From positions 192,001 to 256,000 of the forward strand of contig CAVTHK010000011.1 in the NCBI GenBank assembly GCA_963734495.1: a stretch of DNA of 64,000 bases, written 5' to 3'. A model generated the notes under the pieces. It was given only the letters and a program-made list of their open reading frames with translations, did not search any database and was not told the origin of the DNA. The translations under genes and the position numbers were made by a program. This DNA comes from an uncultured Spirochaetota bacterium (GTDB lineage: Bacteria > Spirochaetota > Spirochaetia > SZUA-6 > CAVTHK01). Numbering within the stretch: the first letter of the stretch is position 1; every line of letters begins with the position of its first letter. This document shows positions 42,486 through 57,390 of the stretch, piece after piece.

Positions 42486-43613
42486 CTACCGCGAGTAGGG
42501 GTCAGCGGCGTCGCGGAGGCCGTCGCCGAGGAAGTTGAAGGCGAGCACGGCGACGATCACGAAGAGGACCGGAAGCAGGAGCCAGGGGTAGAGGGCGACG
42601 GTCCGCACGTTCTGCGCCTCCTGCAGCAGCACTCCCCAGCTGGTGACCGGCGGCCGCAAACCGACGCCCAGGAAGCTGAGCGCCGTTTCGGCGAGGATCA
42701 TCTGCGGAATTGAGAGCGTGATCGACACGATGATGTGGCTCAGGAACGACGGGAGGAGGTGCTTCACGATCACGGTCATCTCGCTCGCGCCCGAGATCAG
42801 GGCCGCCAGCGCGAACTCCTCCTCCCGGAGCGACAGCAGCTTCCCCCGGACCACCCGGGCGAGCCCGGTCCATCCGACGAACGAGAGGATGATCGTGATC
42901 CCGAAGTAGACCTTGAGCGGCGACCAGTGGGGAGGGAGAGCGGCGCTGAGCGCCATCCACAGCGGGATCGACGGGAACGACCTGAGGAGCTCGATGAGCC
43001 GCTGGATCACCACATCGGCGGCGCCGCCGTAGTATCCCGAGACGCCGCCGAGGATCAGCCCCATCAGGAGGCTGAGCAGGACCCCGATCAGGCCTATCGA
43101 CAGGGAGACTCTGGCGCCGTAAAGCACCCGGGAGAGCACATCGCGGCCCATCCGATCCGTTCCGAGCACGAAGAGCGTGCCTTCGCCTTCGACGCCGAAG
43201 AGGTGGACATCCCCTCCCCAGAGTCCCCAGAGCTTGTACTTTTCGCCGCGAGCAAGGAGCCGTACCCGAAACTGCCGGCTCGGGTCCTCGCGGAAGGTCT
43301 TGCGGAGCGTCTCCCTGTCGATCGCGGATTTCATGTCGTACACGAAGGGGCGCAGGTGAAATCCGCGGGAGTCGAAGAAGTGGATCCTCTGCGGAGGCGC
43401 GAACACGTACTTGATGTGCCTCGCCTCGGGATCGTACGGAGACACGAACTCGCAGAACACGCCGAGGAGGTACAGAAGCACGATGAGGAGGCCGCTCGCG
43501 ACGGCCGGCTTGTGCCTCGTGAACTTCCACCACATCAGCCTCCACTGGGAGGCGACGTAGTAGTCCTCATGAGCGTCGGGGCGCTGTTTGGCGGCCGCCG
43601 CGTGCTGCGCCAT
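42486..43613 (-). CDS. Opp/Dpp-family ABC permease (OppC-like)
   Basis: LGTDRMGRDVLSR, EEFALAALISGAS and GDGLRDAADP. Confidence 0.93.
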   Translation of the reverse strand: MAQHAAAAKQRPDAHEDYYVASQWRLMWWKFTRHKPAVASGLLIVLLYLLGVFCEFVSPYDPEARHIKYVFAPPQRIHFFDSRGFHLRPFVYDMKSAIDRETLRKTFREDPSRQFRVRLLARGEKYKLWGLWGGDVHLFGVEGEGTLFVLGTDRMGRDVLSRVLYGARVSLSIGLIGVLLSLLMGLILGGVSGYYGGAADVVIQRLIELLRSFPSIPLWMALSAALPPHWSPLKVYFGITIILSFVGWTGLARVVRGKLLSLREEEFALAALISGASEMTVIVKHLLPSFLSHIIVSITLSIPQMILAETALSFLGVGLRPPVTSWGVLLQEAQNVRTVALYPWLLLPVLFVIVAVLAFNFLGDGLRDAADPYSR

Positions 43614-43617
43614 CTCT

Positions 43618-44613
43618 TCATGCCCCTCTGCTTCCGAACCTGATCCGCGGGTCGGCCCATGCGAGCAGGATGTCCGACACGAGGGTGCCGAGCACCGTCA
43701 TGGCCGCGAGCATCATCACGAACGTTCCGGCCAGGTACATGTCCTGGCTCATCAGCGCGCGAAGGAGCAGGGGCCCGGTCGTCGGAAGGCTCAGCACCAC
43801 TTCAACGATCGTGGAGCCCGATATGAGCGCCGGCAGCAGCCAGGCGATGCTGCTGATCAGAGGGTTGATCGCGATGCGAACCGGGTACTTGAAGAGGAGC
43901 GTTCGTTCGTCCAGGCCCTTGGCCCTTGCGGTTACCACGTACTGTTTCCGCAGCTCGTCGAGGAGGTTCCCGCGCATGATGCGGATGAGGGACGCGGTCC
44001 CCGATGCGCCGACCACCGCGACGGGGATCCAGAGGTGCTTGAGCAGATCGAATACGCGCGCAAGCGTCCACGGAGCGTCGACGTATTCCGCCGAGAAGAG
44101 CCCGCCGACGCTCACGCCAAACGCGCTGTAGGCGACAAACATCAGGACCAGCGCGAGCAGGAGGCTCGGCGTGGCCAGGCCGATGAAACCGAGCAGCGCA
44201 AGGACATGGTCCGCGAGCGTGTACTGGTGGGTGGCCGAGTAGACGCCGATCGGGATCGAGACGACCCAGGTAAAGAGCAGCGTGAACAGCGAGATCACGA
44301 CAGTCAGCAGCAGCCGCTCGCCGATCAGCTCCGCCACCGGCTTATTCCACTCGAAGGACTGGCCGAAGTCGCCGCGGAAGAATCCCGTGATCCACTTGAA
44401 GTATTGCGTGTACAGCGGCGCTTCGAGCCCGTAGCGCGCCTTGAGGCTGGCGATCTGGTCCTCGCTGACGCTCTCGCCGCTCTGGGAGAGCTGCGCGATG
44501 TACGTGGTGAGATAGTCGCCGGGCGGAAGCTGCATGATGACGAATGACACGACCGAGATGAGAAAGAGCGTCGGAAGCATGAGGACAATCCGTCGAGCCA
44601 CAAACGAGAGCAT
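43618..44613 (-). CDS. Opp/Dpp-family ABC permease (OppB-like)
   Basis: LPPGD, GDFGQSF, YVVTARAKGL and DPRIR. Confidence 0.93.
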   Translation of the reverse strand: MLSFVARRIVLMLPTLFLISVVSFVIMQLPPGDYLTTYIAQLSQSGESVSEDQIASLKARYGLEAPLYTQYFKWITGFFRGDFGQSFEWNKPVAELIGERLLLTVVISLFTLLFTWVVSIPIGVYSATHQYTLADHVLALLGFIGLATPSLLLALVLMFVAYSAFGVSVGGLFSAEYVDAPWTLARVFDLLKHLWIPVAVVGASGTASLIRIMRGNLLDELRKQYVVTARAKGLDERTLLFKYPVRIAINPLISSIAWLLPALISGSTIVEVVLSLPTTGPLLLRALMSQDMYLAGTFVMMLAAMTVLGTLVSDILLAWADPRIRFGSRGA

Positions 44614-44669
44614 GATCCTGCTCCCCGCGCCGAGCGGTCATCGCGGCTAAGCCAACGCGCGACTTCGGA

Positions 44670-44698
44670 ATGTTATGCTGCGCCCTCTCTGCTGTCAA
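44670..44698 (-). promoter_or_regulatory. sigma70 promoter for the Opp permeases
   Basis: Minus strand: TTGACA, 17 bp, TAACAT. Confidence 0.65.
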
Positions 44699-44807
44699 AC
44701 CGACGGCGATACCTGAGGATTATGATGAGCTTTGCAGGGCCTGTGATGCCGGGCAGGCGCGAGTAGTTCCCGAGCGGGAGACGTGAGGCGCGCCCGGCTG
44801 CGCATCG

Positions 44808-44837
44808 TTGACGGCGCGCTGGAGCGTCCCGTAGAAT
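44808..44837 (+). promoter_or_regulatory. sigma70 promoter for the SBP / QueG-like operon
   Basis: TTGACG, 18 bp, TAGAAT. Confidence 0.55.
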
Positions 44838-45092
44838 GTGCACGCCGAGACGGGTCCCGCACGGCGGCCGCAACGCGACGGGTTCGTGCATCTTCGTGCG
44901 TCGGTGCACACGCCACGAACACGCGCATTCCGGAAGCCGAAGCGGGTGACTCGCGCAGCTCTTTGGCACCAGGAGTGAGGAGGCGCAGCCGGAATCAACA
45001 TGCCCGTCGGGGGAGGGAGGGGCCGGTTCCGTCATCTGCAACGTGTGGAGCTGGAGAGAAACCTGGCTCTGCAGAACAAGGAGATGGCTCAC

Positions 45093-47042
45093 ATGGCTCA
45101 AAGGACGTGGTTCGTAGCGGTCTTTGTGGTAGCTGTGTCTTGCCTGTGCTTCGCCGGCCCGCAGAAGGAGCAGCCTGCGGCCGGAGCGAAACCTGCCGCA
45201 ACCCCAACGGAAAAGCTCGCCGAATCCCCTGCGCTCGCCGATCTGGTCAAGTCCAAGGCGATCCCCGCCGTCGCGCAGAGGCTCCCCGAGAATCCGCTTG
45301 TGGTCCAGCCGGTCGAAGCGGTCGGGCGCTACGGCGGCAACATGCGCATGGGGCTCCTCGGGCCCGCCGACAGGGCGACGCAGTTCTGGACGTTCCTGTA
45401 CGAGCCGCTCGTGCGCTGGAACCGTGCGGGAGGCGAGGTCGTCGAGAACATCGCGGAGAAATGGACCGTCTCGGATGACGGCCGCAAGTACACCTTCAAC
45501 CTTAGGAAAGGGATCAAGTGGTCGGACGGAGACCCGATGACGTCGGGCGACCTCATGTTCTGGTACCAGAAGATCCTGCTCAACAAGGAACTCACGCCCG
45601 TGGTCCCCGGCTGGCTCGCGAGCGGGAAGGAGCCCGTCAAAGTCACCGCGCCCGACCCGAATACCGTCGTGTTCGAGTTCGCGCAGCCGAACGTGCTGTT
45701 CCTCGAGAACATCGCCTTCAACGGAAGCGCGCCTGGCGCCAACATCGTGCGGCCCGAGCACTACCTCAAACAGTTCCACCCCGACTACGTGCCGCTCGAG
45801 ACCCTCAAGGCCAAGGCGAAGGAGCGCGGGTTCGACCAGTGGTACAAGCTCTTCCTCGACCGCGCCGACTTCCTGCAGAACGGCGACTATCCCGTGCTCA
45901 CGGCCTGGAAGGTCATGGGCCCGCTCACGGAGAACCAGCAGAAGCTCAAGCGCAATGCCTTCTACTGGAAGGTCGATCCGGCGGGCAAGCAGCTTCCCTA
46001 CATCGACGACATCACCGTGCAGGTCGTGGAGAACCCTGAAGTATTGATGATGAAGGTGATCTCCGGCGATCTCGACTTCGACTTCGGGCACCTCACGCTC
46101 CCCAACTACCCGATGCTCAAGGAGAACCAGCAGAAGGGCGGCTACCGCGTGCTCCTCTGGAAGAAGGTGATGGGGACGCAGCTCGAGTTCATGCCGAACC
46201 TCAACCACCAGGATGCGGCCAAGCGCGAGATCTTCAGCAACAAGAAGTTCCGCGAGGCGCTCTCGCTCGCGATCAACAAGGACGAGATCAACGAGCTCTG
46301 CTTCATGGGGCTCGCGGAGACCCGCAACGCGACGGTCGCGAACGCGTGCCCGTACTTCACGCCCGGCATCGACAAGCTCTTCACCGAGTACAACGTCGAC
46401 AAGGCCAACAGGATGCTCGACGAGATCGGGCTCAACAAGCGGGACAGGGACGGCTTCCGACTCCGGCCGGACGGGCAGCCGCTGATGCTCACGATCGAGT
46501 ACCCGCCGCACACCGAGTTCGGCCCGTGGCAGGACATCGTGCACCTCGTGGGCGGCTACTGGAACAAGGTCGGAGTCCGCACGGCGGACAAGTCCATCGA
46601 CCGCTCGCTGTACGAGATCCGCACGCAGACGACGGAGATCGACTTCGTGCTCTGGACCTGGGGCCGCGGCATGCACCCGCTGATCGATCCCGCGTTCGTG
46701 TTCCCGATGAGGGCGGGCCACTTTACCGGCGCGCCCACGTACGCGATGTGGTACTCGACGCGGGGCAAGAGCGGCGAGAAGCCTTCGGGCGACATCCTCA
46801 AGGCGATGGACCTCTACGACAAGTTCACCGTGACGGTGAACCCCCAGGAGAGGCTCGCAGTCGGCAAGGAGATCATCAAGATCGCGGCGGAGAGCTGCTG
46901 GGGCATCCCTACGGTCGGGCTGGCGCCCGCGGTCGAAGTGGTCAAGGAGACCATGGGCAACGTGCCCAAGGAGAGCCTGCACGAGTGGGTTCTCATGCAG
47001 TTCGCTCACGTGAACCCGGAGCAGTTCTACTTCAAGAAATAG
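45093..47042 (+). CDS. ABC substrate-binding protein, family 5 (OppA-like, long oligosaccharide-type subgroup)
   Basis: Signal peptide, QRLPENPLVV..VGRYGG, LRKGIKWSDG, RNAFYWKVD..GKQLPYID and PEQFYF; AAGGAG RBS. Confidence 0.93.
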   Translation: MAQRTWFVAVFVVAVSCLCFAGPQKEQPAAGAKPAATPTEKLAESPALADLVKSKAIPAVAQRLPENPLVVQPVEAVGRYGGNMRMGLLGPADRATQFWTFLYEPLVRWNRAGGEVVENIAEKWTVSDDGRKYTFNLRKGIKWSDGDPMTSGDLMFWYQKILLNKELTPVVPGWLASGKEPVKVTAPDPNTVVFEFAQPNVLFLENIAFNGSAPGANIVRPEHYLKQFHPDYVPLETLKAKAKERGFDQWYKLFLDRADFLQNGDYPVLTAWKVMGPLTENQQKLKRNAFYWKVDPAGKQLPYIDDITVQVVENPEVLMMKVISGDLDFDFGHLTLPNYPMLKENQQKGGYRVLLWKKVMGTQLEFMPNLNHQDAAKREIFSNKKFREALSLAINKDEINELCFMGLAETRNATVANACPYFTPGIDKLFTEYNVDKANRMLDEIGLNKRDRDGFRLRPDGQPLMLTIEYPPHTEFGPWQDIVHLVGGYWNKVGVRTADKSIDRSLYEIRTQTTEIDFVLWTWGRGMHPLIDPAFVFPMRAGHFTGAPTYAMWYSTRGKSGEKPSGDILKAMDLYDKFTVTVNPQERLAVGKEIIKIAAESCWGIPTVGLAPAVEVVKETMGNVPKESLHEWVLMQFAHVNPEQFYFKK

Positions 47043-47054
47043 GGGATGCGGCAG

Positions 47055-47082
47055 CGAGGGGAGGGATCTGTCCCTCCCCTCG
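47055..47082 (+). terminator. Perfect 12-bp hairpin without U-tract after the SBP gene (mRNA stabiliser or partial terminator)
   Basis: CGAGGGGAGGGA-tctg-TCCCTCCCCTCG. Confidence 0.65.
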
Positions 47083-47121
47083 GCCGCCGCAAGCGCGATC
47101 GCACCGAAAAGGAGGCTGCTG

Positions 47122-47898
47122 ATGACGCGTGCTGCGCTCGAGGGGTTCGTGCACGATCTCGGGCTCGATCTCGTGGGCGTTGCGCCGATCGAGCGCTTTG
47201 CGGGCGTTGCGCCGGAGAGGCATCCCGCAACGATCTTTCCCGAAGCGAAGACCGTCGTTGTGATCGGGCTGGAGATCCCTCGCGGGACCTTCAGAGGAAT
47301 AGAAGAAGGAACCCTCTGGACTCGGGCGCCGCGGCAGCTCCCGCCCAAACAGACCTATCAGGTCGCGCGTTTCCTCGAGCAGGACGGGTGGGAGGCGGTG
47401 CCCGTTTCACCGCTCGCTCCCGAGCGGTGGCCCGACGGCGTCCCGGTGGCGGAGGGCAAGGTTCCGCCTAACGTGTCGCCGTCGCTCGAGAACGCGGCGG
47501 TTTCCGCCGGCCTCGGCGAGATCGGGCTGTGCGGGGTGTTCCTCACGCCGCAATTCGGGCCGCGCCAGTCGCTGGCGATGCTGATCACCGACGCCCCGCT
47601 CGAGCCGGGCCCCGCGCACGCGGGGACCATCTGCGACGGGGCGAGCTGCGCCGCGTGCGCGGCGGCTTGCCCACTCGGGGCCATCGACGTCAAGACTGCG
47701 ACGGTGAGCAGGAGAGCCTGCCGCCTCTGTCCCAACGGCGTGTTCGCCGACGAGACCTCGAAGCAGGCGGTGCCGAACTTCCTCACGGCCGCCTGCGTGC
47801 GCGCGTGCATCGCGCACCTCGAGGAAGCGGGCAAGCTCACCAAGCGCTACAACAGCCCGTTCCGCAAGCGCAAGCCGTGGGCCCAGGGCCTGGTCTAG
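47122..47898 (+). CDS. QueG/reductive-dehalogenase-like cobalamin 4Fe-4S protein, paralog 1
   Basis: GLDLVGVAPIERF, HP..IFPEAKTVVVIG, AAVSAGLGEIG...LTPQFGPRQ...ITDAPLEP and CxxxxCxxCxxxCP; AAGGAGG RBS. Confidence 0.8.
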   Translation: MTRAALEGFVHDLGLDLVGVAPIERFAGVAPERHPATIFPEAKTVVVIGLEIPRGTFRGIEEGTLWTRAPRQLPPKQTYQVARFLEQDGWEAVPVSPLAPERWPDGVPVAEGKVPPNVSPSLENAAVSAGLGEIGLCGVFLTPQFGPRQSLAMLITDAPLEPGPAHAGTICDGASCAACAAACPLGAIDVKTATVSRRACRLCPNGVFADETSKQAVPNFLTAACVRACIAHLEEAGKLTKRYNSPFRKRKPWAQGLV

Positions 47899-47908
47899 AG
47901 GAGGCCGC

Positions 47909-48886
47909 ATGCTCACCAGCAAGATGGTCAAGGAGTTGGCGGTCAAGGCGGGCTTCGACCTGGCAGGCGTTGCGAACATCGAGCGCTTCGACGATGCTCC
48001 CCCGGAGATGCACCCCTGCACGATCTTCCCCGAGACGAAGAGCGTCGTGGTCATGGCCACGCGCATACTTCGCGGCTCCTACCGCGGCGTGGCGGAGGGG
48101 ACGGAGTGGTCCACGTACTGGATCTTCGGCTACGGCGCGGGGATCTACGGCATCCTCAACGAGGCGACGCGCCAGGTGCAGAGCTACATCGAGTCTTTCG
48201 GGTGGGAGGCGGTCCAGGCGCCGGGCAGCGCCACGCTTCCCGAGATGGGCCCGCTGCGGGAGCCCGTCGCTCCCGGTAAGCTCGCGAGCGACGTCACCGT
48301 TTCGTTCCGCCTCGCTGCCGCTGCCGCCGGCCTGGGCGAGCTCGGGCATGCGAAGGTCTTTCTCACGCCGCAGTTCGGCCCGAGGCAGCGGTTCGCCGTG
48401 GTCCTCACCGACGCGAAGCTCGAGCCGGATCCCCTCTTCGAAGGCACGCTGTGCGACGACTGCCGCAAGTGCGTCTCCGCGTGCCCCGGCGGCGCGATCG
48501 GCAAGAGCCGGACGGTTTCGACCGAGATCGACGGCCGCAAGTTCAAGTGGGCGCCTCTCGACTACGGCAAGTGCAAGCTCACCCACTGGGGGTTCAACAA
48601 GGCGGCTTCGCCCTTTGTCGCCAGGGACCTGCCGGGGCTCGTCCTGCCGATCGGCAGCCAGCGCATGAAGTGGAGAGAGGCGTACGATTTCGGGTGGACG
48701 CTCGCGAACCGGGTCGGATACATCCAGGTCGTCTCCAGGGGCATCACGGAGATCGAGCAGCCTGGCCGCCCCGGATCGATCTGCGCGGCCCGAGGCTGCA
48801 TCCAGGCGTGCGACGCCTGCCTCTCGGCTTCGGGCGTCATCCCGGGGAAACGAAGCGCGACGAGGGCATCGAGGAGGGCGAATTAA
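47909..48886 (+). CDS. QueG/reductive-dehalogenase-like cobalamin 4Fe-4S protein, paralog 2
   Basis: AAAAAGLGELG...LTPQFGPRQRF...TDAKLEPD, CDDCRKCVSACP, and a second cluster KC...CAARGCIQAC. Confidence 0.82.
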   Translation: MLTSKMVKELAVKAGFDLAGVANIERFDDAPPEMHPCTIFPETKSVVVMATRILRGSYRGVAEGTEWSTYWIFGYGAGIYGILNEATRQVQSYIESFGWEAVQAPGSATLPEMGPLREPVAPGKLASDVTVSFRLAAAAAGLGELGHAKVFLTPQFGPRQRFAVVLTDAKLEPDPLFEGTLCDDCRKCVSACPGGAIGKSRTVSTEIDGRKFKWAPLDYGKCKLTHWGFNKAASPFVARDLPGLVLPIGSQRMKWREAYDFGWTLANRVGYIQVVSRGITEIEQPGRPGSICAARGCIQACDACLSASGVIPGKRSATRASRRAN

Positions 48887-48887
48887 G

Positions 48888-49778
48888 ATGAAGGGCGGCA
48901 GTCTCGCCGACGACGTCAAGAAGCTGGCCCGCGAGCTGGGCGCGGACCTCGTGGGGGTCGCGTCCGTGGATCGCTTCCAAGGGGCCCCGGACGAATACCA
49001 CCCCGACAGCCTGCTCCCGGGAACCATGAGCGTCATCAGCATTGCGATCCGCATCCTCCGGGGCGTGCAGATCCCGCAGCAGAGCCTGAAGCAGAACTAC
49101 CAGTACCAGATCTTCGGCTACGGGTGGCTGAGCCACATCCGGCTCAACTGGATCGCCTTCGAGGTCGCGCGCTTTCTGGAGGACCAGGGCCACGTGGCCC
49201 TGCCGTTCCCCTCGTTCTGCGACGACCAGTACGGCGACAAACATCCGTCATGGTTCCGGCGCACGAAGCCTTCGATCTCCAATCGGCACGCCGCGGTCGC
49301 CGCGGGTATCGCTCGGCTGGGATGGAGCAATCTCGCGATGACGCGGCAGTTCGGCACGCGGCAGCGGTTCGTGACGATCATGACGACCGCGGAGATCGGC
49401 CCCGATCCGCTCATCGAAGAGGATCTCTGCGACAAGTGCATGATCTGTGTGAAGGCGTGCCCCGGCAAGGCCATCTCGGGTTCCGAGGCGGTCAAGTACA
49501 GCCTGGCGGGCCTCGCGGTCGAGACGGGCGCGCTGAACAGGCCGAAGTGCTCTTGGTTCCACGATGGAATCGCGACGGAGACGTTCGGCACCGTGCCGCT
49601 CGCCCAGCCGCCTGACGTGACGTGGGAGCAGTTCCGGGAGGCGAGGCGGATCGTGGACTACGCGTCGCCGAGCCAGTTCGCGGGCAGAATCACCACGTTC
49701 ACGACCGGCGGCCATTGCGGCTTGTGCATCCTGTCGTGTCCCAAGGGCACGCAGTGGCGGCCGGGGAGGGCCCCATGA
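48888..49778 (+). CDS. QueG/reductive-dehalogenase-like cobalamin 4Fe-4S protein, paralog 3
   Basis: SNRHAAVAAGIARLG...TRQFGTRQRF, CDKCMICVKACP and KC...CGLCILSCP. Confidence 0.82.
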   Translation: MKGGSLADDVKKLARELGADLVGVASVDRFQGAPDEYHPDSLLPGTMSVISIAIRILRGVQIPQQSLKQNYQYQIFGYGWLSHIRLNWIAFEVARFLEDQGHVALPFPSFCDDQYGDKHPSWFRRTKPSISNRHAAVAAGIARLGWSNLAMTRQFGTRQRFVTIMTTAEIGPDPLIEEDLCDKCMICVKACPGKAISGSEAVKYSLAGLAVETGALNRPKCSWFHDGIATETFGTVPLAQPPDVTWEQFREARRIVDYASPSQFAGRITTFTTGGHCGLCILSCPKGTQWRPGRAP

Positions 49779-50725
49779 TCAGCTCAAAAGAGCTCAAGGC
49801 TGTCGCGAAAACCCACGGCGCGGACCTCGTCGGCATCGCATCGATGGACAGGTTCGAAGGCGCTCCCGTGCAGATGGACCCGCGACGCATCTTCCCGGAT
49901 GCGAGGGCGCTGATCGTCTGCGCCTGCCGCATCCCGCGTGGCGTGCTCATCGGGATCGAGGAAGGCACGTACTTCAACTCCTACTCGATGATGGGATACG
50001 CGGGCATCAACTTCGTTCGCATGCCGATGGTGCTCTGGAGCGTGACGAACTACCTGGAGGACGACGGGTACGACGCGCTCCCGATGGCGAACCATTTCCC
50101 CTGGTCCGCCATCTCGCTCGACAACGGGCGGATGCGCAAGTGGTGGAGCCGTCCCGTGGCTCCCGACAAGCCCGCGCCCGACGTCAGCGTGCACTTCCGG
50201 ATCGCCGCGTTTGCGGCGGGCCTCGGGGAAATCGGCTATAGCAAGGTTTTTCTCACGCCGCAGTTCGGCCCGCGGCAGCGTTTCGGGCTGATCCTCACGA
50301 ACGCCCCGCTGGAGCCCGACCCGCTGTTCGACGGCCGCATCTGCGACCGCTGCATGCTGTGCGCGCGCAACTGCACCGGCGACGCGATCAGCACGACGGA
50401 GACGGTCAAGGTCGCGGTCGCCGGCAGGCAGCTCGAGTGGGGCAAGCTGGACGAGGCCCGCTGCCGGATGGGGTTCCGCGGCGGCAATCCCGAGGCGAAC
50501 CCTTTCTTCGTGGACCAGCCGGAGCACATCTTCTGGCACGGCGAGGCCATCGAAGGGGCGGCGGGCTGCATCAGGGCCTGCATGCTCCACCTCGAGGAGA
50601 AGGGCGTCGTTGGAAACAAATTCCAGGAGCCGTTCCGGCGCCGCCCGCCGTGGTCGCTTCCGCGGGACTGGAAAAAGGACATCGCGCCCACGGCGCCGCG
50701 GCTGGAGCCACGAGAGGATCGTTGA
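49775..50725 (+). CDS. QueG/reductive-dehalogenase-like cobalamin 4Fe-4S protein, paralog 4
   Basis: ATGA overlap with paralog 3; FRIAAFAAGLGEIG...LTPQFGPRQRF, CDRCMLCARNCT and RC...GCIRAC. Confidence 0.82.
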   Translation: MISSKELKAVAKTHGADLVGIASMDRFEGAPVQMDPRRIFPDARALIVCACRIPRGVLIGIEEGTYFNSYSMMGYAGINFVRMPMVLWSVTNYLEDDGYDALPMANHFPWSAISLDNGRMRKWWSRPVAPDKPAPDVSVHFRIAAFAAGLGEIGYSKVFLTPQFGPRQRFGLILTNAPLEPDPLFDGRICDRCMLCARNCTGDAISTTETVKVAVAGRQLEWGKLDEARCRMGFRGGNPEANPFFVDQPEHIFWHGEAIEGAAGCIRACMLHLEEKGVVGNKFQEPFRRRPPWSLPRDWKKDIAPTAPRLEPREDR

Positions 50726-50729
50726 GCCG

Positions 50730-51764
50730 ATGAGGTTCTCGGTCGGCTACCGCGTGATGCCCGGCGATCCCGACTTCTTTGCGGACATCGTCGAAGACTA
50801 CAGGGAGCGCGTCGACGAGGTGTACTTCGCCTGGCCGGAAGATCCTTCGGGGAGAACGCCCGTGCCGGCCAGCGCGCTCTCGCAGCTTCTCGAGGAGATC
50901 GCGCACATCGCGTCGCTGGGCGTCGGGCTGAACCTGCTCTTCAACGCTTCCTGCTACGGAGACGCGGCCCTTTCCGCGTCGCTGCGTGATCACGTCGTCG
51001 AGCTGGTGTCCCGCCTCTCCGAGGCGGGCCTGACGGCGGTGACAACGATGTCTCCGGTCATCGCCCGGGCGGTCAGGGCCGCGTTCCCGCACCTCGACGT
51101 GAGGGCTTCGGTGAACATGCGCCTGGGCACGGTCAGGGCAATGGAATACGTGTCGGGCCTGTTCGACAGCTACAACGTTCAGCGGGAGTACAACCGCAGA
51201 CCCGACCGCCTTTCGGAGCTCGGCAAGTGGGCGGGAGAAAACGGCAAGAAGCTCCACGTGCTCGTCAACAGCGGATGCCTGAGCTTCTGCTCCTTCCAGA
51301 CCTTTCACGACAACGTCGTGGCGCACGAAGCCGGGGTCAACCGCAACCGCAACGTCGCGGCCGCGCCGACTCTCTGCCGGGAGCTCTACTCCGACCGCGG
51401 GCGGTGGCCCGCCTTTCTGCAGGGATCGTGGATACGGCCGGAGGACATCGCGAAGCACAGGGCCTTCTTCGACGGCGGCTACAAGATCGCCGCCCGGATG
51501 CACGACAATCCGAGGATGGTGATCGACGCCTACGCGAAGGGGAGGTACTACGGGAACCTCCTGGACCTCATGGAGCCGGGCTTCGGGCCGGTCTTCGCTC
51601 CCCACGTGGTGGACAACCGCCGCTTCCCATCGGACTGGTTTTCGTCTACAACAGGATGTTCGTCGGACTGCGCGCGCTGCACCTACTGCGCGGACACGCT
51701 CGAGCGAGTGCTCGTCGACGTGGACACTCTCGCCGGCGCGCGGCGCGAGGAGGCGGTGACGTAG
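50730..51764 (+). CDS. Peptidase U32-like Fe-S protein (UbiU/TrhP superfamily)
   Basis: GLNLLFNASC, DVRASVN, QREYNR, LVNSGCLSFC...C, WIRPED, YKIAAR and C-terminal CxxxCxxCxxC. Confidence 0.7.
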   Translation: MRFSVGYRVMPGDPDFFADIVEDYRERVDEVYFAWPEDPSGRTPVPASALSQLLEEIAHIASLGVGLNLLFNASCYGDAALSASLRDHVVELVSRLSEAGLTAVTTMSPVIARAVRAAFPHLDVRASVNMRLGTVRAMEYVSGLFDSYNVQREYNRRPDRLSELGKWAGENGKKLHVLVNSGCLSFCSFQTFHDNVVAHEAGVNRNRNVAAAPTLCRELYSDRGRWPAFLQGSWIRPEDIAKHRAFFDGGYKIAARMHDNPRMVIDAYAKGRYYGNLLDLMEPGFGPVFAPHVVDNRRFPSDWFSSTTGCSSDCARCTYCADTLERVLVDVDTLAGARREEAVT

Positions 51765-51767
51765 CCT

Positions 51768-52001
51768 ATGCCGATCTACGAGTTCCGCTGCCGGGGATGC
51801 GGAGACGAGTTCGAGCTGCTCCTCAGGCGCGATGAGACAGCGGTCAAGTGCCCCGAGTGCTCGAGCGCGGACGTGGTGCGGAAGTTCAGCGCCTTTGCCG
51901 TCAAGTCCGGCGCTTCCAGGAATGACCTGTCGATGAGCTCGAGCGCGGGCGGCAGCTCCTGCGCCGGCTGCTCAGGCGGCCACTGCTCGACCTGTCACTG
52001 A
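51768..52001 (+). CDS. FmdB-family zinc-ribbon protein
   Basis: MPIYEFRCRGCG.EFE...CPECSS plus C-terminal CAGCSGGHCSTC. Confidence 0.9.
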   Translation: MPIYEFRCRGCGDEFELLLRRDETAVKCPECSSADVVRKFSAFAVKSGASRNDLSMSSSAGGSSCAGCSGGHCSTCH

Positions 52002-52028
52002 CCGCGGGCCCGGCAGGTCCGACAACCG

Positions 52029-52361
52029 CTACACTACGTACTCCGGTCTCATGGGCGTGAAGCACTCGATGACCTCGGAGTCTTCGAGGACCTCCGCGCT
52101 GTGGGTCTCCATCGAATCGAAGATGTAGCTGGCGCCCGGCTTCATGACCGCGCTCGAGCCGTCGCCGAACGTGAAGCGCACCCGCCCGCTCATGAGGTAT
52201 CCGACCTGCACCGCGGCGTGATTATGGGGCGGCACTTTGGCGCCCTTCTTCATCTTGAAATGACACAGCATGGTCTCGGCGTTGTAGGACATGGTCTTCC
52301 GGAAGATCCCGGGAAAGACTTCCACCTGCTTCAGCGCCTCGACGTTCGTGCTCCCGCCCAC
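52029..52361 (-). CDS. Cupin domain protein
   Basis: PPHNH..Q.GY..SG and ETHSA...IECFTP.R; GGGAGG RBS before GTG at 52361. Confidence 0.85.
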   Translation of the reverse strand: MGGSTNVEALKQVEVFPGIFRKTMSYNAETMLCHFKMKKGAKVPPHNHAAVQVGYLMSGRVRFTFGDGSSAVMKPGASYIFDSMETHSAEVLEDSEVIECFTPMRPEYVV

Positions 52362-52416
52362 CTCTCGTCCTCCCTTCCGATGCGACCTCGCGGCTTGCAG
52401 GCGCCTGTGCGCCGCC

Positions 52417-53472
52417 TCACGCGATCGCCTTGCCGGTCCTCTGCTGGCGAACCAGGTCCAGGACCTGCGTCCACCCTTTGATGAAGCTGTCGCGGAACTT
52501 GACCACGGGACCGTAGCCCGCGTACTGACTCCTGGCGAGCCCGTCCTCGAGGTAGGCGCAGGCGAAGTCCGGCAGTCGCGCCAGCAGCTCGTCCACGAGC
52601 GCGCGGGGCTCCGGCGCATCGATGCGGCGGACGACGGGGCCGTCCTGCTCGATCAGCTTGTCCGCGGTTCCCTTCCAGTTGATCGTGATGTCGACCTCTC
52701 CCCCGACGAAGTCGGTAAAGTGGGCGAGCCCGCGCGCACCGCCGCCGAGCAGGATCCCCGGATAGCCCCGCTCCTTCATCAGGTGATACTGCTTGCGGGC
52801 GACGACCGCGCCGGCGATCGCGAGCGCGTCCGGCGAGACGGCGATGCGTTTTCGCTCCGCCGTCTCCTTGAGGTATTCGTCGAAGATGCCCGTGATGTGC
52901 GTCACGAAGAACGCGGGGCTGCTGCCGCTTTCGCGCGCGGCCCGCCGGTAGAGCTCGCACGCAGCGACGGCCTGCGCGATCGCCATGATCTCGGTCGCGA
53001 TGACGGGAACGTTCCGCCGCAGCAGCGCGTCCATCGCCGCGAGCCCGGCCTCGGTGGTCGGAATCTTGGCGATGAAGTTGGCGCCCAGCTTCGCGTGGCG
53101 CAGCGCCTCGTTTACGATGCCATCGGCGTCGGTGTCTTTCAGCGGGTTGCCCTGAATCGAGACGAACCCCTCGCGCCGGGGAGCGGCCTCGTGCAGCTCG
53201 AGGAACTCGGCCATGATGCGCCGGGCGAGACGCTGCTGCACCAGGTCGACCGCTTCCTGATCGTCGTCGGCCTCCGAGACCGCCCGGGCGACCGCCCGCG
53301 TCACCTCGGCCCCGTCGGATTCCGCTGTCAGCAGCTTCGAGGCGTACGACGGGTTGGTCGTGCAAGCGATAGCGCCTGCCGCAATCGACTTGCGCGCCTC
53401 TTCCACGGTCGGGTTGTTGATCCACAGCCGCGTCGGCGTCTGTTCCGCTACCCGCTGAAAGTAGCCCTTCAT
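52417..53472 (-). CDS. Transaldolase-family protein (divergent)
   Basis: WINNP, TTNPS, VSIQG, Schiff-base Lys in AKIP and LGGGARG; ATGA overlap with the transketolase C subunit. Confidence 0.82.
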   Translation of the reverse strand: MKGYFQRVAEQTPTRLWINNPTVEEARKSIAAGAIACTTNPSYASKLLTAESDGAEVTRAVARAVSEADDDQEAVDLVQQRLARRIMAEFLELHEAAPRREGFVSIQGNPLKDTDADGIVNEALRHAKLGANFIAKIPTTEAGLAAMDALLRRNVPVIATEIMAIAQAVAACELYRRAARESGSSPAFFVTHITGIFDEYLKETAERKRIAVSPDALAIAGAVVARKQYHLMKERGYPGILLGGGARGLAHFTDFVGGEVDITINWKGTADKLIEQDGPVVRRIDAPEPRALVDELLARLPDFACAYLEDGLARSQYAGYGPVVKFRDSFIKGWTQVLDLVRQQRTGKAIA

Positions 53473-54455
53473 TTTCGCCCCTTCTTGCGGGCATGCGCTT
53501 CGCGCATGGCGGCCACGATGTCGCCGACCCCCATCGCGTACCTGTCGAGCAGTGCCTCGGCTTCGCCGGACTCGGGGAAGGTGTCCTTGAGGCCGACGCG
53601 CGCGAGCGGCGTCGGGCAGAGGTCCGCGGCCGCTTCCGCGATCGCGCTTCCGAGCCCTCCGATGATGTTGTGGTCCTCGACGGTCACGGCGGCGCCGGCG
53701 CGCGCGAGGATGTCCGCCACCCCCGGGGCGTCCAGCGGCTTCAGCGTGTGCACCTCGACCACCGTCGCCTTGAGCTCGTCCTTGATGCTCTCGGCCGCGG
53801 CCAGCGCGCGCTTGAGGATGGGCCCGCACGCGAACACCGCCACATCGCGCCCGTATTCCCGCATCACGCGGATCCTGCCGAATTCGAACGGCACGCCGGC
53901 GTCGAAGATCACGGGTTCCCTTCCGCTTCCGAGCCGGAGGAACCCCGGGCCGGGGCGCCTGGCGAGCGCGAGAGTCGCCTGCCTGGTTTCCGCCGCGTCG
54001 GCGGGCACGATCACGTCGATGCCGGGAATGCTTCGCAGGATCCCGAGGTCTTCGAAGAACTGGTGCGTCACGCCCTCGCGCTCGCCGCCGTAGAGCCCGC
54101 CGTTGAGGCCGACGAACTTGACCCGCAGCCCCGGGTAGGCGACGAACGTCCGCACCTGCTCGCACGCCCTCATCGTGATGAAGCCGGAGTACGTGCCGAC
54201 GAACGGCAGGACCCCGCACGATGCCAGGCCCGCGGCGACGGCCACCGCGCTCTGCTCGGCGATGCCGATCTCGAACAGGCGGGCGGGGTACGCATCGGCG
54301 AACCTGGTCGCGCGCAGCGCCTTGAGCGAGTCCGCGGACACCAGGGCAACCGAGGGGTCGGCGGCGGCCAGCTCCATCAGCGCGTCGACGAACGCTTCGC
54401 GGGTGCTTGCCATCTTCGCGGCGGCGGCGGGTTCCGTGGTCTTTCGCTCAGCCAT
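53469..54455 (-). CDS. Transketolase, C-terminal (pyrimidine-binding) subunit
   Basis: EIGIAEQ, RACEQVR, GVTHQ, TLKPLD and EDHNIIGGLG. Confidence 0.92.
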   Translation of the reverse strand: MAERKTTEPAAAAKMASTREAFVDALMELAAADPSVALVSADSLKALRATRFADAYPARLFEIGIAEQSAVAVAAGLASCGVLPFVGTYSGFITMRACEQVRTFVAYPGLRVKFVGLNGGLYGGEREGVTHQFFEDLGILRSIPGIDVIVPADAAETRQATLALARRPGPGFLRLGSGREPVIFDAGVPFEFGRIRVMREYGRDVAVFACGPILKRALAAAESIKDELKATVVEVHTLKPLDAPGVADILARAGAAVTVEDHNIIGGLGSAIAEAAADLCPTPLARVGLKDTFPESGEAEALLDRYAMGVGDIVAAMREAHARKKGRK

Positions 54456-55275
54456 TGGCCGCCTCCAGACACTCGATCGCCCTGGCCAGCTCCTCTTTCG
54501 TCGGCACCCGCTTGTGCCAGCTGTTGTCCCGCTCCATGAACGGCACGCCCTTGCCCTTGATGGTGCGCGCCACGATCACCGACGGCCGCGGGTCCGCGCG
54601 CGCCGCATCGACGGCGTTCAGGATCGCGGCGACGTCGTGTCCGTCGATCTCCTGCGTGTGCCACCCGAACGAGGCGAACTTCGCGGCGATGTCCCGCATG
54701 CCGCTGACCTCTTCGATGAGGCCGCCGCTCTGGTAGCCGTTGTAGTCGACGAACGCGATCAGCCGGCCGAGCTTCTGGTTGGCCGCGGACTGGGCCGCCT
54801 CCCACACGATTCCTTCGTTGAGCTCGCCGTCGCCCGTCACGACGAACACGTGGTAGTCCTGCTTCTGCATCCGGCCTGCCAGCGCCATCCCGGTGCCGAC
54901 CGCGAGCCCGTGCCCCAGCGAGCCGGTCGTCATGTCGATGCCGGGCGTCTTGCCCATGACCGGGTGTCCCTGCAGGATCGACCCCAGGCTGCGCAGCGTC
55001 GGCAGGAGGTCAGGGGAGAAGTAGCCCCTCCGTGCGAGCGCCGCGTACACGACGGGGCAGGAGTGCCCCTTTGACAGGATGAAGCGATCCCGCAGCGGCC
55101 AGCCCGGGTTGGCGGGATCGATCCGCAGCACCTTGAAGTACAGCACCGCCACGATGTCGGCGGCCGACAGAGCCGGTCCCGGATGCCCGTCGCCCGCGAG
55201 GTGCACCATCGTGAGCACGTCCCTGCGCAGCAGGTTGCCCGTTCGGGCAAGCTCCCTGTTGGATATCTGGTTCAT
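54448..55275 (-). CDS. Transketolase, N-terminal (TPP-binding) subunit
   Basis: GHPG, RDRFILSKGH, TGSLGHG, GDGELNEG and TIKGKG. Confidence 0.93.
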   Translation of the reverse strand: MNQISNRELARTGNLLRRDVLTMVHLAGDGHPGPALSAADIVAVLYFKVLRIDPANPGWPLRDRFILSKGHSCPVVYAALARRGYFSPDLLPTLRSLGSILQGHPVMGKTPGIDMTTGSLGHGLAVGTGMALAGRMQKQDYHVFVVTGDGELNEGIVWEAAQSAANQKLGRLIAFVDYNGYQSGGLIEEVSGMRDIAAKFASFGWHTQEIDGHDVAAILNAVDAARADPRPSVIVARTIKGKGVPFMERDNSWHKRVPTKEELARAIECLEAANG

Positions 55276-55341
55276 TGGCGTCTGCCCGCCTTCTCCTTGG
55301 TCCGAGGCCCGGCGTGATTGTGTCCGGTCAACCTTGTGGAG

Positions 55342-57390
55342 TCAATCCAGCGGCAGCCAGATCGCCATCTCGGTTGACCCGCTGCGGTTGTCCCAGCAGA
55401 AGTACGGGATCATCCTGACTTTGGCCCGCCGCGGCGGCGCGCCGCTCACCTCGCGGTAGAGGTCGGTCCCCCAGTCCCTGTGCTCGTACTTGAGGGCCTC
55501 CCCTTCGAGCGCGATCACAGGCGCTCCCGCGATCGCATGCTTTGCGGGCTGGAGCTCGATGTCCCGCGGAATCGCCAGGTCGAAGATGTCGCCGCCGTCG
55601 GCGCGCATGTCCGCAGACTCGATGCAGTAGACCACGGGGCCGCGGAGCACGGCGACCTGGCCGCGGGTCTCCTCGAGGAGGTGATGGCCTTCGACCAGGC
55701 GCGTCCTCATGGGCAGGGAAAGCTCGACGACGTCTCCTGGCGCCCATTGCCTCCGCAGCTCGAAGAACCGCCCGGCCTCGGGGCCCGCCTTGTGGAGCTG
55801 CTTGCCCGCGCGGGACTTGACGACGAGCGACGCGGCATCGGCCCACTGCGGGATGCGCAGCATGAGCGCGAACTCGGTCGCCTTGGCAACGTTCACGGTG
55901 ATCGCGATTTCGCCGCTCCACGGGTATTCGGTCTTCTGCTCGAGGGTAACCTCGGTGCCGTTCACGAGCGAACCCTTCCAGGTGTTGGCGCCGTACAGGA
56001 CGGCCCAGACCGCGTCGTCCGTCACGCAGTAGGCGTAGCAGTTGGTCTCCGCGATCGTGCGCGCGATGTTGGGGGGGCAGCAGTAGCAGGCGATGTGGCC
56101 CTGCCTCTCTGTCGACCACCGCATCGGGAAAGGCACGCCCTTGGATCTCTTGAGCGCATTCGAGTAGAAGTACCGCGTGCCGTCCAGGCTGATCGTGGAC
56201 AGGATTCCGTTGATCAGAGTGCTCTCCAGCAGGTCCGCGTACTTGGCGTCGCCGGAGATCTGGAGCATCCGCCAGTTCCAAAGAGCGCTTCCGATGGTCG
56301 CGCAGCTTTCGTTGTAACCGGTCAGGTTGGGCAGCTCGTACTCCCTGCCGTACGACTGCTGCACGAAGTGAACGGCGTTGGGTCTCGGGGCCTGTTTGTC
56401 CTCCCTCTCGGGGTGAGGCTGATCGCCCTTGGCCATCAGCTCGTGGTGCAGGAATGTGCCATGAGTGCTGGGCGACGTTCCCGTGTTCAGCGCTCCGGTG
56501 GCGCCCGTCACGTAGAGCTTGTGCGAGACCAGGTCGTCCCAGATCGCGTGCAGCGCCGAGAGCAGGCTCTCGTCCCCGCTCTCCGCGTAGACGTCAGCCG
56601 CGCCCGCGTAGAGGTAGTTCGCCCTGACGCCGTGTCCGACCGCCTTGGTCTGCTGGCGGAACGGCAAGCGTTCCTGGTTCATATCCGTGCCGTTCTCGAC
56701 CAGGTCGCGCATATCGATGAACTTCTTTCCGAGCTCCAGGTAGCGGGAATCGCCCGTCGTTCGGTACATCTCGATGATGCCCATGTAGTGTGAAGGGCAG
56801 ATATCGAAACGCGCCAGGTCCGGCGTCGGTTTGGCGAACGCCTTGCACAGGAAGTCACTCAGCTTGATCGCGATGTCCAGCAATGTCCGCTTTCCGGTGA
56901 TCCTGTAGTGCAGGCAGGCCGCAGTCATCAGATGCCCGCAGTTGTACGTCTCGAACTCGATCGCCCGTTCGAACGGCCTGGCCTCCGCGCGGCCCCGCAC
57001 CTTGTCGAGCGCGAGCCGCGTGTATATGTAGCCGTCCCCCTGCTGGACCTTGCCGATCACCGAGATGACGGTGTCGATCAGTCTTTCGAGCTCCGAATCG
57101 CGGCTGATGTTGTACACTGCAATGGCGGCTTCCAGCCACTTGTAGAGGTCACCATCGGAGAATCCATATCCCTCGTGCTGATGTCCTTCTTTCTCCCCGA
57201 CGGCCCTGAGGAAGTTCCCGTAGTGCGGGTTCTGCATCTCCTGCCAGAGGTGCTTGATGGTGGCACTGGCGCAGGCGTCGAACCGCTCGGCCCACAGCCC
57301 CGACGTCCAGCGGACCGAGTCGACGTCGACGCTCTTGAGCTTCATGTGCGGAGTCTGCAGGTTGTTCGTGATGCCCTTGCCCTTTTTCAC
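55342..57390 (-). CDS. GH127 glycoside hydrolase (beta-L-arabinofuranosidase-like)
   Basis: DGDLYKWLEA, ETYNCGH, GHGVRANYL, YNESCA and CYCCPPN (Zn/Cys catalytic motifs); GAGGAGG RBS. Confidence 0.92.
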   Translation of the reverse strand: MKKGKGITNNLQTPHMKLKSVDVDSVRWTSGLWAERFDACASATIKHLWQEMQNPHYGNFLRAVGEKEGHQHEGYGFSDGDLYKWLEAAIAVYNISRDSELERLIDTVISVIGKVQQGDGYIYTRLALDKVRGRAEARPFERAIEFETYNCGHLMTAACLHYRITGKRTLLDIAIKLSDFLCKAFAKPTPDLARFDICPSHYMGIIEMYRTTGDSRYLELGKKFIDMRDLVENGTDMNQERLPFRQQTKAVGHGVRANYLYAGAADVYAESGDESLLSALHAIWDDLVSHKLYVTGATGALNTGTSPSTHGTFLHHELMAKGDQPHPEREDKQAPRPNAVHFVQQSYGREYELPNLTGYNESCATIGSALWNWRMLQISGDAKYADLLESTLINGILSTISLDGTRYFYSNALKRSKGVPFPMRWSTERQGHIACYCCPPNIARTIAETNCYAYCVTDDAVWAVLYGANTWKGSLVNGTEVTLEQKTEYPWSGEIAITVNVAKATEFALMLRIPQWADAASLVVKSRAGKQLHKAGPEAGRFFELRRQWAPGDVVELSLPMRTRLVEGHHLLEETRGQVAVLRGPVVYCIESADMRADGGDIFDLAIPRDIELQPAKHAIAGAPVIALEGEALKYEHRDWGTDLYREVSGAPPRRAKVRMIPYFCWDNRSGSTEMAIWLPLD

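Follow-up and report, generated by a model that had tools for sequence, protein, structure and literature searches.

Organization of the locus

We analyzed a 64,000-nt stretch of DNA (the window) from an uncultured Spirochaetota bacterium (GCA_963734495.1, contig CAVTHK010000011.1, positions 192,001-256,000, forward strand), which contains an operon of four tandem paralogs, here denoted g1 to g4, related to the cobalamin (B12)-type Fe-S proteins QueG and RdhA. The operon begins with the gene of a family-5 solute-binding protein (SBP; 45093..47042, + strand, PF00496), followed on the same strand by a GC-rich hairpin without a U-tract (47047..47091). Next come g1 (47122..47898), a short degenerate subunit of 258 aa of class III (B12/2x[4Fe-4S]); g2 (47909..48886), a complete class III protein of 325 aa; g3 (48888..49778), a complete class III protein of 296 aa from another sub-branch; and g4 (49775..50725), 316 aa, which represents a widespread type. 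The genes of a U32-like protein, a divergent U32-fold TIM barrel of 344 aa (50730..51764), and of an FmdB-type zinc ribbon with a Cys-rich tail (51768..52001, 77 aa, TIGR02605 above cut-off) complete the unit. An ORF check bore out the seven plus-strand ORFs of the original prediction, with spacings of 10, 1 and -4 bp between the successive paralogs; the g4/U32-like and U32-like/FmdB spacings are 4 and 3 bp. Pairwise identity among g1-g4 is 30-47%.

The hairpin behind the SBP gene, also expected from the original prediction, was recovered with a stability of -48.4 kcal/mol (47040-47125; z -4.25), which none of 200 shuffles equaled. It is a probable mRNA-stabilising or step-down element. Related-strain contigs from other runs (97-99% alike) ran gap-free over g1 and bridged the g4/U32-like and U32-like/FmdB junctions, none of them spanning the whole stretch, so the gene arrangement is not an assembly artefact. 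A 13-residue beta-hairpin is deleted in g1 relative to its homologs, and one of these contigs (X2 record 12) spans this position without a gap.

No Tat signal or membrane helix was found in g1-g4 or the U32-like protein, and no small membrane-anchor ORF was found in 44600-52100, which agrees with the earlier claim that a Tat signal and an RdhB-like anchor are absent. An RRxF string in g4 (residues 37-40) falls within a conserved DPRxIFP segment. On the other side of the SBP gene, and divergent from the operon, lie two ABC permease genes on the minus strand: an OppC-type permease that is a probable partner of the SBP (42486..43613, PF00528 and PF12911) and an OppB-type permease (43618..44613, PF00528 and PF19300). 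Divergent sigma-70-like sites were seen in 44670..44837 (+ strand 44808-44837, 10/12; - strand 44698-44670, 10/12); these are consensus matches only, with three sites seen against 0.6 +/- 0.8 in shuffles.

The paralogs lie outside the QueG and RdhA clades

We compared g1-g4 with the two known families by profile, phylogeny and structure. All four scored below both family thresholds, with 39-52 bits for the RdhA profile TIGR02486 (cut-off 160) and 24-39 bits for the QueG profile TIGR00276 (cut-off 200); g2 scored 50 and 32 bits, respectively. The profile E-values were 3e-17 to 5e-11 for RdhA versus 5e-6 to 2e-4 for QueG.

The phylogeny against QueG and RdhA that had been proposed earlier was constructed with FastTree (66 rows, 252 columns) from 15 RdhA references, 9 QueG references and 42 family rows; of 28 reference loci put through a filter for motif and length, 24 gave a protein. 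The QueG clade (support 1.0) and the RdhA clade (0.995) were separate, and none of the 42 family rows, g1-g4 among them, fell inside either. With deep supports of 0.7-0.9, this tree can show that the family lies outside QueG and RdhA; it does not serve to place a root or to establish the family as a single clade. The g1, g2 and g4 types clustered together (0.90), and g3 clustered with three further paralogs of the same genome (0.987). Used as a query against plasmids, g3 gave two weak matches. It is a local addition to the locus.

The predicted model of g4 (pLDDT 88) consists of a nitroreductase-like module followed by a two-cluster ferredoxin, as in class III, and matched four class III representatives at Z 15.9-17.4 (QueG 5d6s, 17.4; RdhA 8q4h, 17.1; 4uqu, 17.0; NpRdhA, 15.9). 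At a Z of about 17, it stands equally far from QueG and from RdhA. By sequence homology to g4, g1-g3 are predicted to share this fold. The g4 model aligned only to residues 1-247 of 5d6s and then ran into coil, and the HEAT-repeat domain is absent; g1-g3, at no more than 325 aa, likewise do not show the C-terminal HEAT repeats of QueG.

It is very improbable that these genes are QueG paralogs that reduce epoxyqueuosine in tRNA. Databases list homologs as hypothetical proteins, as ferredoxins or, often, as QueG, and in the own genome (83% complete) tgt genes were found and no QueG above the cut-off. Against this identity stand the low scores, the position outside the clade, the absence of the HEAT-repeat domain and the absence from g1-g4 of the DYH motif, which is present in 8 of the 9 QueG references (the ninth is truncated). 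The catalytic Asp column is D in 9/9 QueG and P, A, S or N in g1-g4. In addition, two genomes (G062 and G074) encode a true QueG in addition to their 8 and 5 family members, respectively. A second tgt-like gene of the own genome (G000:C10:95229-96326) lies in several frames and is possibly frameshifted.

A second alternative is that the paralogs are catabolic, non-respiratory reductive dehalogenases that act on imported halogenated organics and have expanded like rdhA arrays. The sequences are nearer to RdhA than to QueG, and the equivalent of RdhA Arg305 is kept in g2-g4. Known rdhA arrays are multi-copy with individual regulators, similar to the arrays described here. We regard this alternative as unlikely, given scores (39-52 bits) below the cut-off of 160, the position outside the RdhA clade, the lack of a Tat signal and anchor, and neighbors that are sugar-transporter and glycan genes; Pfam searches of the window proteins found no dehalogenase domain and no fused reductase. 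The scores, the tree and the missing Tat signal and anchor support the earlier reading of g1-g4 as cytoplasmic proteins that are neither QueG nor respiratory RdhA.

Cysteine and active-site residue patterns

The four paralogs had been predicted to share several motifs, which holds in general; g3, however, has AGIARLG and TRQFGTRQ instead of AGLGE.G and TPQFGPRQ. The CxxCxxCxxxC pattern is likewise not common to all four, as g1 has Cx4Cx2Cx3C and g4 has seven of the eight cluster cysteines. All eight are present in g2 and g3 and, with one shifted, in g1, while g4 has Glu260 at the sixth position. The accessible part of PMC4646009 assigns the fourth to seventh cysteines to the corrin-proximal cluster, and by this assignment Glu260 takes the place of one Cys ligand of that cluster. 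Glu260 is not invariant, as position 260 is E in 27 and C in 21 of 48 g4 homologs. A shifted CxxC at the corrin-proximal cluster was found in 95/95 g1-type and 29/29 t1-type proteins.

We found that R169 of g4, which corresponds to PceA R305, is R in 48/48 g4 homologs and R or K in 15/15 RdhA, with an aromatic residue or Ala in QueG at this column; g1 alone of the four paralogs lacks it. R142 of g4 is R in 8/9 QueG and varies in RdhA. The complete subunit g2 has all eight cysteines and Y70, Y75, R134, K149 and R161. The g1 protein keeps eight cysteines with a subfamily-specific CxxC and has lost the Tyr segment and the equivalents of R142, K157 and R169. Across g1-type proteins the Y70/Y75 segment is deleted in 94/95, R142 and K157 are mostly gone and R169 is gone, while their sequences retain an RGxxRGIEEGT segment and the Fe-S clusters. 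Several active-site positions vary among paralogs (82, Y/R/F/L/H; 106, N/H; 260, E/C), a pattern that would count for substrate-specific paralogs.

The loss of the pocket residues in g1-type proteins raises the alternative that B12 use has been lost and that the family consists of Fe-S electron-transfer or sensing proteins. According to PMC4646009, class III B12 binding has no diagnostic motif, which leaves room for such a loss. It is nevertheless quite improbable for the family, because g2-g4 keep the whole nitroreductase-like module, the Arg found in 8/9 QueG and many invariant polar residues.

A U32-like protein is linked to g4-type genes

The model of the U32-like protein (pLDDT 85) is a TIM barrel and is structurally closest to the U32 protein Mk0906 (5d88; Z 19.0 versus 13.2 for the next; rmsd 3.2 over 226). 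This structure was on top in both structure searches (E 5.8e-8 in the other search). The window protein itself had no match to PF01136, and a sequence search of solved structures with it found nothing; weak PF01136 matches at E 0.01 or better were obtained for 18 of 48 homologs (best 7.5e-6). The U32 assignment is thus borne out by the fold and these homologs. In the ESM Atlas, Uroviricota is the phylum listed most often for one look-alike cluster of this protein (4 recorded members).

Eight cysteines are conserved in 47-48 of the 48 homologs: C75, C183-x3-C187 and C216 in the barrel, and C310-x3-C314-x2-C317-x2-C320 as a second, C-terminal four-Cys site. The C183-x3-C187-x28-C216 spacing fits neither the CX6CX15CX3/4C motif of U32 oxidases nor the UbiV-type CXnCX12CX3C (PMC6747719, accessible part). 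The O2-independent hydroxylation suggested earlier by analogy to UbiU/V, TrhP and RlhA is therefore not simply transferable to this protein.

To place the protein in other organisms, we used it as a query. At E 1e-30, 288 representatives (50% clustering) were reached. From metagenomes, the same query retrieved 534 stretches that were confirmed, and we examined the best 80, a set biased to close relatives and partly redundant. Sixty-nine of these include 600 bp or more upstream of the U32-like gene, and in 57 of them the gene immediately preceding it is of the g4 type. A family member of any type is present in 69 of the 80. A g4 query found 47 genome loci, in Verrucomicrobiota, Armatimonadota, Omnitrophota, Ratteibacteria, Bacillota, Lentisphaerota, Kiritimatiellia, Bacteroidota and Planctomycetota, and 20 of them contain a U32-like gene. 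For 24 of the remaining 27 loci, we searched the source genomes for it (23 in all, with 1-22 family members each); 17 have one close copy elsewhere and 6 have none. Among 60 genomes of the same order as the window's, close forms of g4 and of the U32-like gene were found in the same 2. In the genome with 22 family matches (G068), the U32-like gene stands alone, and one g4 copy is followed by a 74-aa U32-like remnant (L208:5984-6208). This distribution of one U32-like partner to many enzymes suggested a shared service role. We rejected the possibility that the U32-like protein is required only by Glu260 enzymes, as Glu types occur in genomes without a U32 match (L027, L031).

It is unlikely, in our estimate, that the U32-like protein is itself the catalyst, a prephenate-type O2-independent hydroxylase with the B12/Fe-S proteins as substrate-binding or electron-accepting partners. 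The U32 fold and the tight linkage to g4 fit this possibility, for which the precedents are in PMC10990095, PMC5727448 and PMC11574389 (accessible parts); according to the first, characterised U32 proteins hydroxylate without O2 and require an unidentified oxidant. Against it, the Cys pattern departs from that of the oxidases, and no recurring prephenate gene accompanies the pair, with chorismate synthase only near two loci (L009 and L010). A single-copy U32 protein beside many varied paralogs also indicates that specificity lies in the B12 proteins.

A sister U32 clade was observed at L144:7339-8421 and L145:7125-8303 in acyl-CoA ligase/carrier-protein-like clusters, which suggests O2-free tailoring in biosynthesis. 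The L144 protein matched the U32-like protein with an hhalign probability of 99.8, and the clade scores above cut-off for PF01136.

The cassette is modular

The original prediction expected a conserved cassette of four paralogs, one U32-like gene and one FmdB gene. We found that g3 and the FmdB gene do not recur in the other cassettes examined (for FmdB, no match at E 1e-4 in L001-L047 or L056-L135), and the U32-like gene is common to many paralogs. There is thus no conserved 4+1+1 cassette. The cassette is instead modular, with g4 plus the U32-like gene, g1 plus g2, and the SBP gene as its three modules and g3 and the FmdB gene as local additions. A single four-step pathway is likewise unsupported, as the U32-like protein behaves as a one-per-genome partner of many paralogs.

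The order of the g1+g2 module is conserved. In all 13 cases where a downstream gene is available, the window among them, a short g1- or t1-type gene precedes a complete g2- or t2-type gene; one gene with a frameshift was counted a single time, and L031/L032 and L068/L071 are closely related pairs. The simplest reading of this order is that g1 and g2 probably form a heterodimer with g1 as an inactive subunit. The earlier idea of a hetero-oligomer is therefore plausible for g1 and g2. Complete-plus-degenerate tandems also occur within the g4 type (L217, L218), and fusions of family domains of about 740-810 aa exist. We also observed three-part fusions of a complete, a degenerate middle and a complete part (L003:916-3132, L020:6263-8488, L024:7321-9759, L047:10001-12289); at L062:10492-12839 this arrangement is split over two genes.

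Orthologs of the SBP (53-57% identity) head related cassettes at three loci, in the orders SBP, g1, g2, g4, g4, U32 (L062), SBP, SBP, g4, U32, g1, g2 (L071) and SBP, g4, U32 (L083). Other family-5 proteins of the own genome have about 40% identity or less over long matches. Together with the ABC context, this supports the earlier tie of the enzymes to an imported substrate. The nearest structures of the SBP are 5ipw and the pectin-binding SPH1118, whose ligand residues are described in PMC9314435 (accessible part). The stacking Trp594 of SPH1118 is kept as W632, whereas the uronate-binding Arg57 and Arg496 are not. A pectin-type uronate ligand was rejected because these key arginines are missing. 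The kept Trp and lost arginines weakly favor a neutral sugar, and the ligand is probably a neutral (oligo)saccharide.

Genomic context of the family

We analyzed the neighbors of family members. In the own genome, an ABC binding-protein or permease gene is found at most 6 kb upstream of four of the five family loci (three of four without the window locus); the background frequency is 8.9%. In a genome of the same genus (G001), g4, the U32-like gene, sugar ABC genes and an AGE-family epimerase gene stand in one run. In G068, an IclR gene, confirmed by Pfam, stands next to 6 of the 14 family loci, and the neighbors there (43 selected were scanned) include an FGGY kinase, an aldolase, a rhamnose mutarotase, an alpha-fucosidase, GH36/31 and sugar dehydrogenases. 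Further neighbors elsewhere, from a scan of 122 of 144 listed neighbors and of a selection of 128, include sulfatases, heparinase II/III, GH2, GH4, GH9, GH28, fucose isomerase and sugar transporters. Of the substrate classes suggested earlier, the context therefore favors modified sugars, and not nucleosides, corrinoids or organohalides.

These contexts also bear on the possibility that the family processes or reactivates cobamides, as a CblC/CblD-like pair serving, for example, URO-D-family methyltransferases, with a corrinoid imported by the SBP. After the class III proteins, the next structural neighbors of the g4 model are MMACHC (Z 10.2) and CblD (Z 7.9), which form a complex (9mrs); URO-D-family genes adjoin 7 loci, and the pairing of complete with degenerate proteins fits as well. 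The own genome has two B12-binding-domain genes and a single cobalamin riboswitch, none at the operon. This riboswitch sits on another contig, and the scanned neighbors include no B12 transport or synthesis genes; both points argue against cobamide processing. Since the 8-22 paralogs, each with its own regulation, are better explained by a range of substrates than by maintenance of the cofactor, we consider such a role doubtful and on the whole unlikely.

Several further observations were made at these loci. Four more class III-type genes occur in the own genome (G000:C2:49050-50087, C9:325933-326874, C11:674175-674942 and C11:413032-413754); three follow sugar ABC genes, and the C9 copy lies ~6 kb from a corrinoid-binding protein gene. 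Downstream of the operon, a convergent minus-strand unit (52029-57390) contains GH127, a split transketolase, a transaldolase and a cupin-domain gene. It diverges from a GntR gene and a sugar ABC system, and it may feed the B12 operon or be unrelated. In three Prolixibacteraceae loci (L022, L023, L026) the genes of a sodium:solute symporter and of a PALP enzyme that presumably resembles cysteate synthase stand ahead of the pair. Desulfonation of sulfoquinovose or other compounds was set aside, as the cases are too few and related: these three PALP genes, and AGE-family genes at L142 and at L129, the latter of which we take to belong to that family from its sequence.

Discussion

The observations above concern the genes and their linkage, the folds and residue patterns of the proteins, their position in the tree, copy numbers and contexts; we infer from them that the proteins bind B12 and Fe-S clusters, form dimers and use Co(I) chemistry, that the substrate is a sugar, and what the U32-like protein does. 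We propose, with a probability of about 50%, that the paralogs work in the cytoplasm as Co(I) enzymes, each specific for its substrate, that remove a C-O or other C-heteroatom substituent from imported modified sugars by reductive cleavage, and that one shared U32-like Fe-S protein serves them. The unit would serve the inducible anaerobic catabolism of such a chemically modified sugar, with the ABC system importing the (oligo)saccharide. The g4 protein would probably be a homodimer, g1-g2 probably a heterodimer with one inactive subunit, and g3 may provide added specificity. The substrate would perhaps first be oxidised to a keto sugar by neighboring dehydrogenases. The superfamily is described in the accessible part of PMC4646009 as holding base-off cobamide beside two clusters, with a Co(I) nucleophile and Tyr-assisted protonation of the leaving group. 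By analogy, base-off cobamide would be reduced via the two Fe-S clusters to Co(I), which would cleave the group that blocks ordinary sugar catabolism, with Tyr and Arg as proton donors. Each paralog would have its own substrate, and the U32-like protein, one per genome, would provide a common service, such as a role in electron supply or reactivation, in tailoring the cofactor, or in dealing with a product that all of them share.

Several points weigh against this proposal. In the clustering of neighbors at 123 loci (122 related loci and the window), the commonest after the two core families were IclR (14), a PF12831 FAD protein (11), AraC (10), Gfo/Idh/MocA (9) and URO-D (7); no substrate-specific catabolic gene occurs in more than about a tenth of the loci, and many pairs stand amid unrelated housekeeping genes. 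The lineages are rich in glycan genes anyway, with the background measured in the own genome only, and gene calls came from a simple custom caller. The 6 of 23 genomes that have paralogs and no U32-like match, in incomplete assemblies, indicate that the partner may not be obligatory. The position of the QueG Asp and RdhA Asn is Pro, Ala and Ser in g1-g3, and the placement of the active-site Tyr depends on the aligner (Y75 with MAFFT, or position 82 in a weak HMMER segment). Finally, the sugar ligand of the SBP is a probable, predicted one.

The branch can be distinguished from each known relative. With RdhA (PceA 4uqu, 8q4h; the catabolic NpRdhA 4ras/6zxu; TIGR02486) it shares the nitroreductase-like module and two-cluster ferredoxin, the GADLVG, AGLG and TPxFGPxxR segments and the Arg305 equivalent. 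Unlike RdhA, the proteins are 260-325 aa long, form a separate clade, lack a Tat signal, anchor and reductase domains, have a Glu (g4) or a shifted Cys (g1) at the corrin-proximal cluster, and come with degenerate partner subunits, a U32-like partner and sugar contexts. With QueG (5d6s, 5d08; TIGR00276) they share the core fold (Z 17.4), the Arg at g4 position 142 and the cytoplasmic location; unlike QueG, they lack DYH, the catalytic Asp and the HEAT-repeat tRNA domain, are multi-copy and are not linked to tRNA-modification genes. MMACHC and MMADHC (CblC/CblD) have a common B12-binding fold and related subunits of unequal completeness; these proteins, however, lack the ferredoxin part, perform eukaryotic cofactor processing and match at Z 8-10 only. 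The U32-like protein shares the TIM barrel and four conserved barrel cysteines, one of them far upstream as in UbiV, with the U32 Fe-S proteins UbiU/UbiV, TrhP, RlhA and Mk0906 (5d88). It differs in the C75...C183-x3-C187-x28-C216 pattern, the second four-Cys site, a score below the Pfam cut-off and the pairing with B12-type enzymes.

O-methyl sugars are our leading specific guess for the substrate, because they are many, would require one enzyme each and are recalcitrant, and the solution given in the accessible part of PMC6292453 is only an aerobic one. The paralogs could provide the missing oxygen-free O-demethylation of sugars by attacking the methyl ether with Co(I), and the U32-like protein could strip, oxidise or reductively release the Co-bound methyl group, possibly as formaldehyde or methane, and reset the enzyme. 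We offer this specific chemistry tentatively, as possible at low odds. The carbohydrate O-demethylating P450 of Zobellia (PMC6292453) may be a functional analogue that strips a blocking methyl and sits among glycan genes; its fold is unrelated and it depends on O2, so the likeness is one of analogy only.

In the open-access literature, which did not extend to supplements, we found no study of this B12 branch or of a pairing of U32 with B12 reductases. Class III has only two established reactions; PMC4646009 (accessible part) allows for additional families and notes how little is known of the redox partners. The present analysis adds the modular reading, one U32 partner for up to 22 paralogs, the degenerate-plus-complete pair and the conserved SBP. 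The branch is widespread and expanded to 8-22 copies in glycan-degrading lineages. As it is routinely mislabelled QueG or ferredoxin, its recognition would set right how many queG and rdhA genes are counted in metagenomes. The U32-like protein, from a poorly understood family, is a candidate dedicated partner of the branch, and conservation of the binding protein offers a direct route to the substrate. If true, the O-methyl reading would set an anaerobic system beside the P450s that demethylate carbohydrates, and class III B12 proteins would gain a third type of reaction. The findings make testable how anaerobes handle recalcitrant modified sugars, such as the O-methyl sugars described in the accessible part of PMC6292453.

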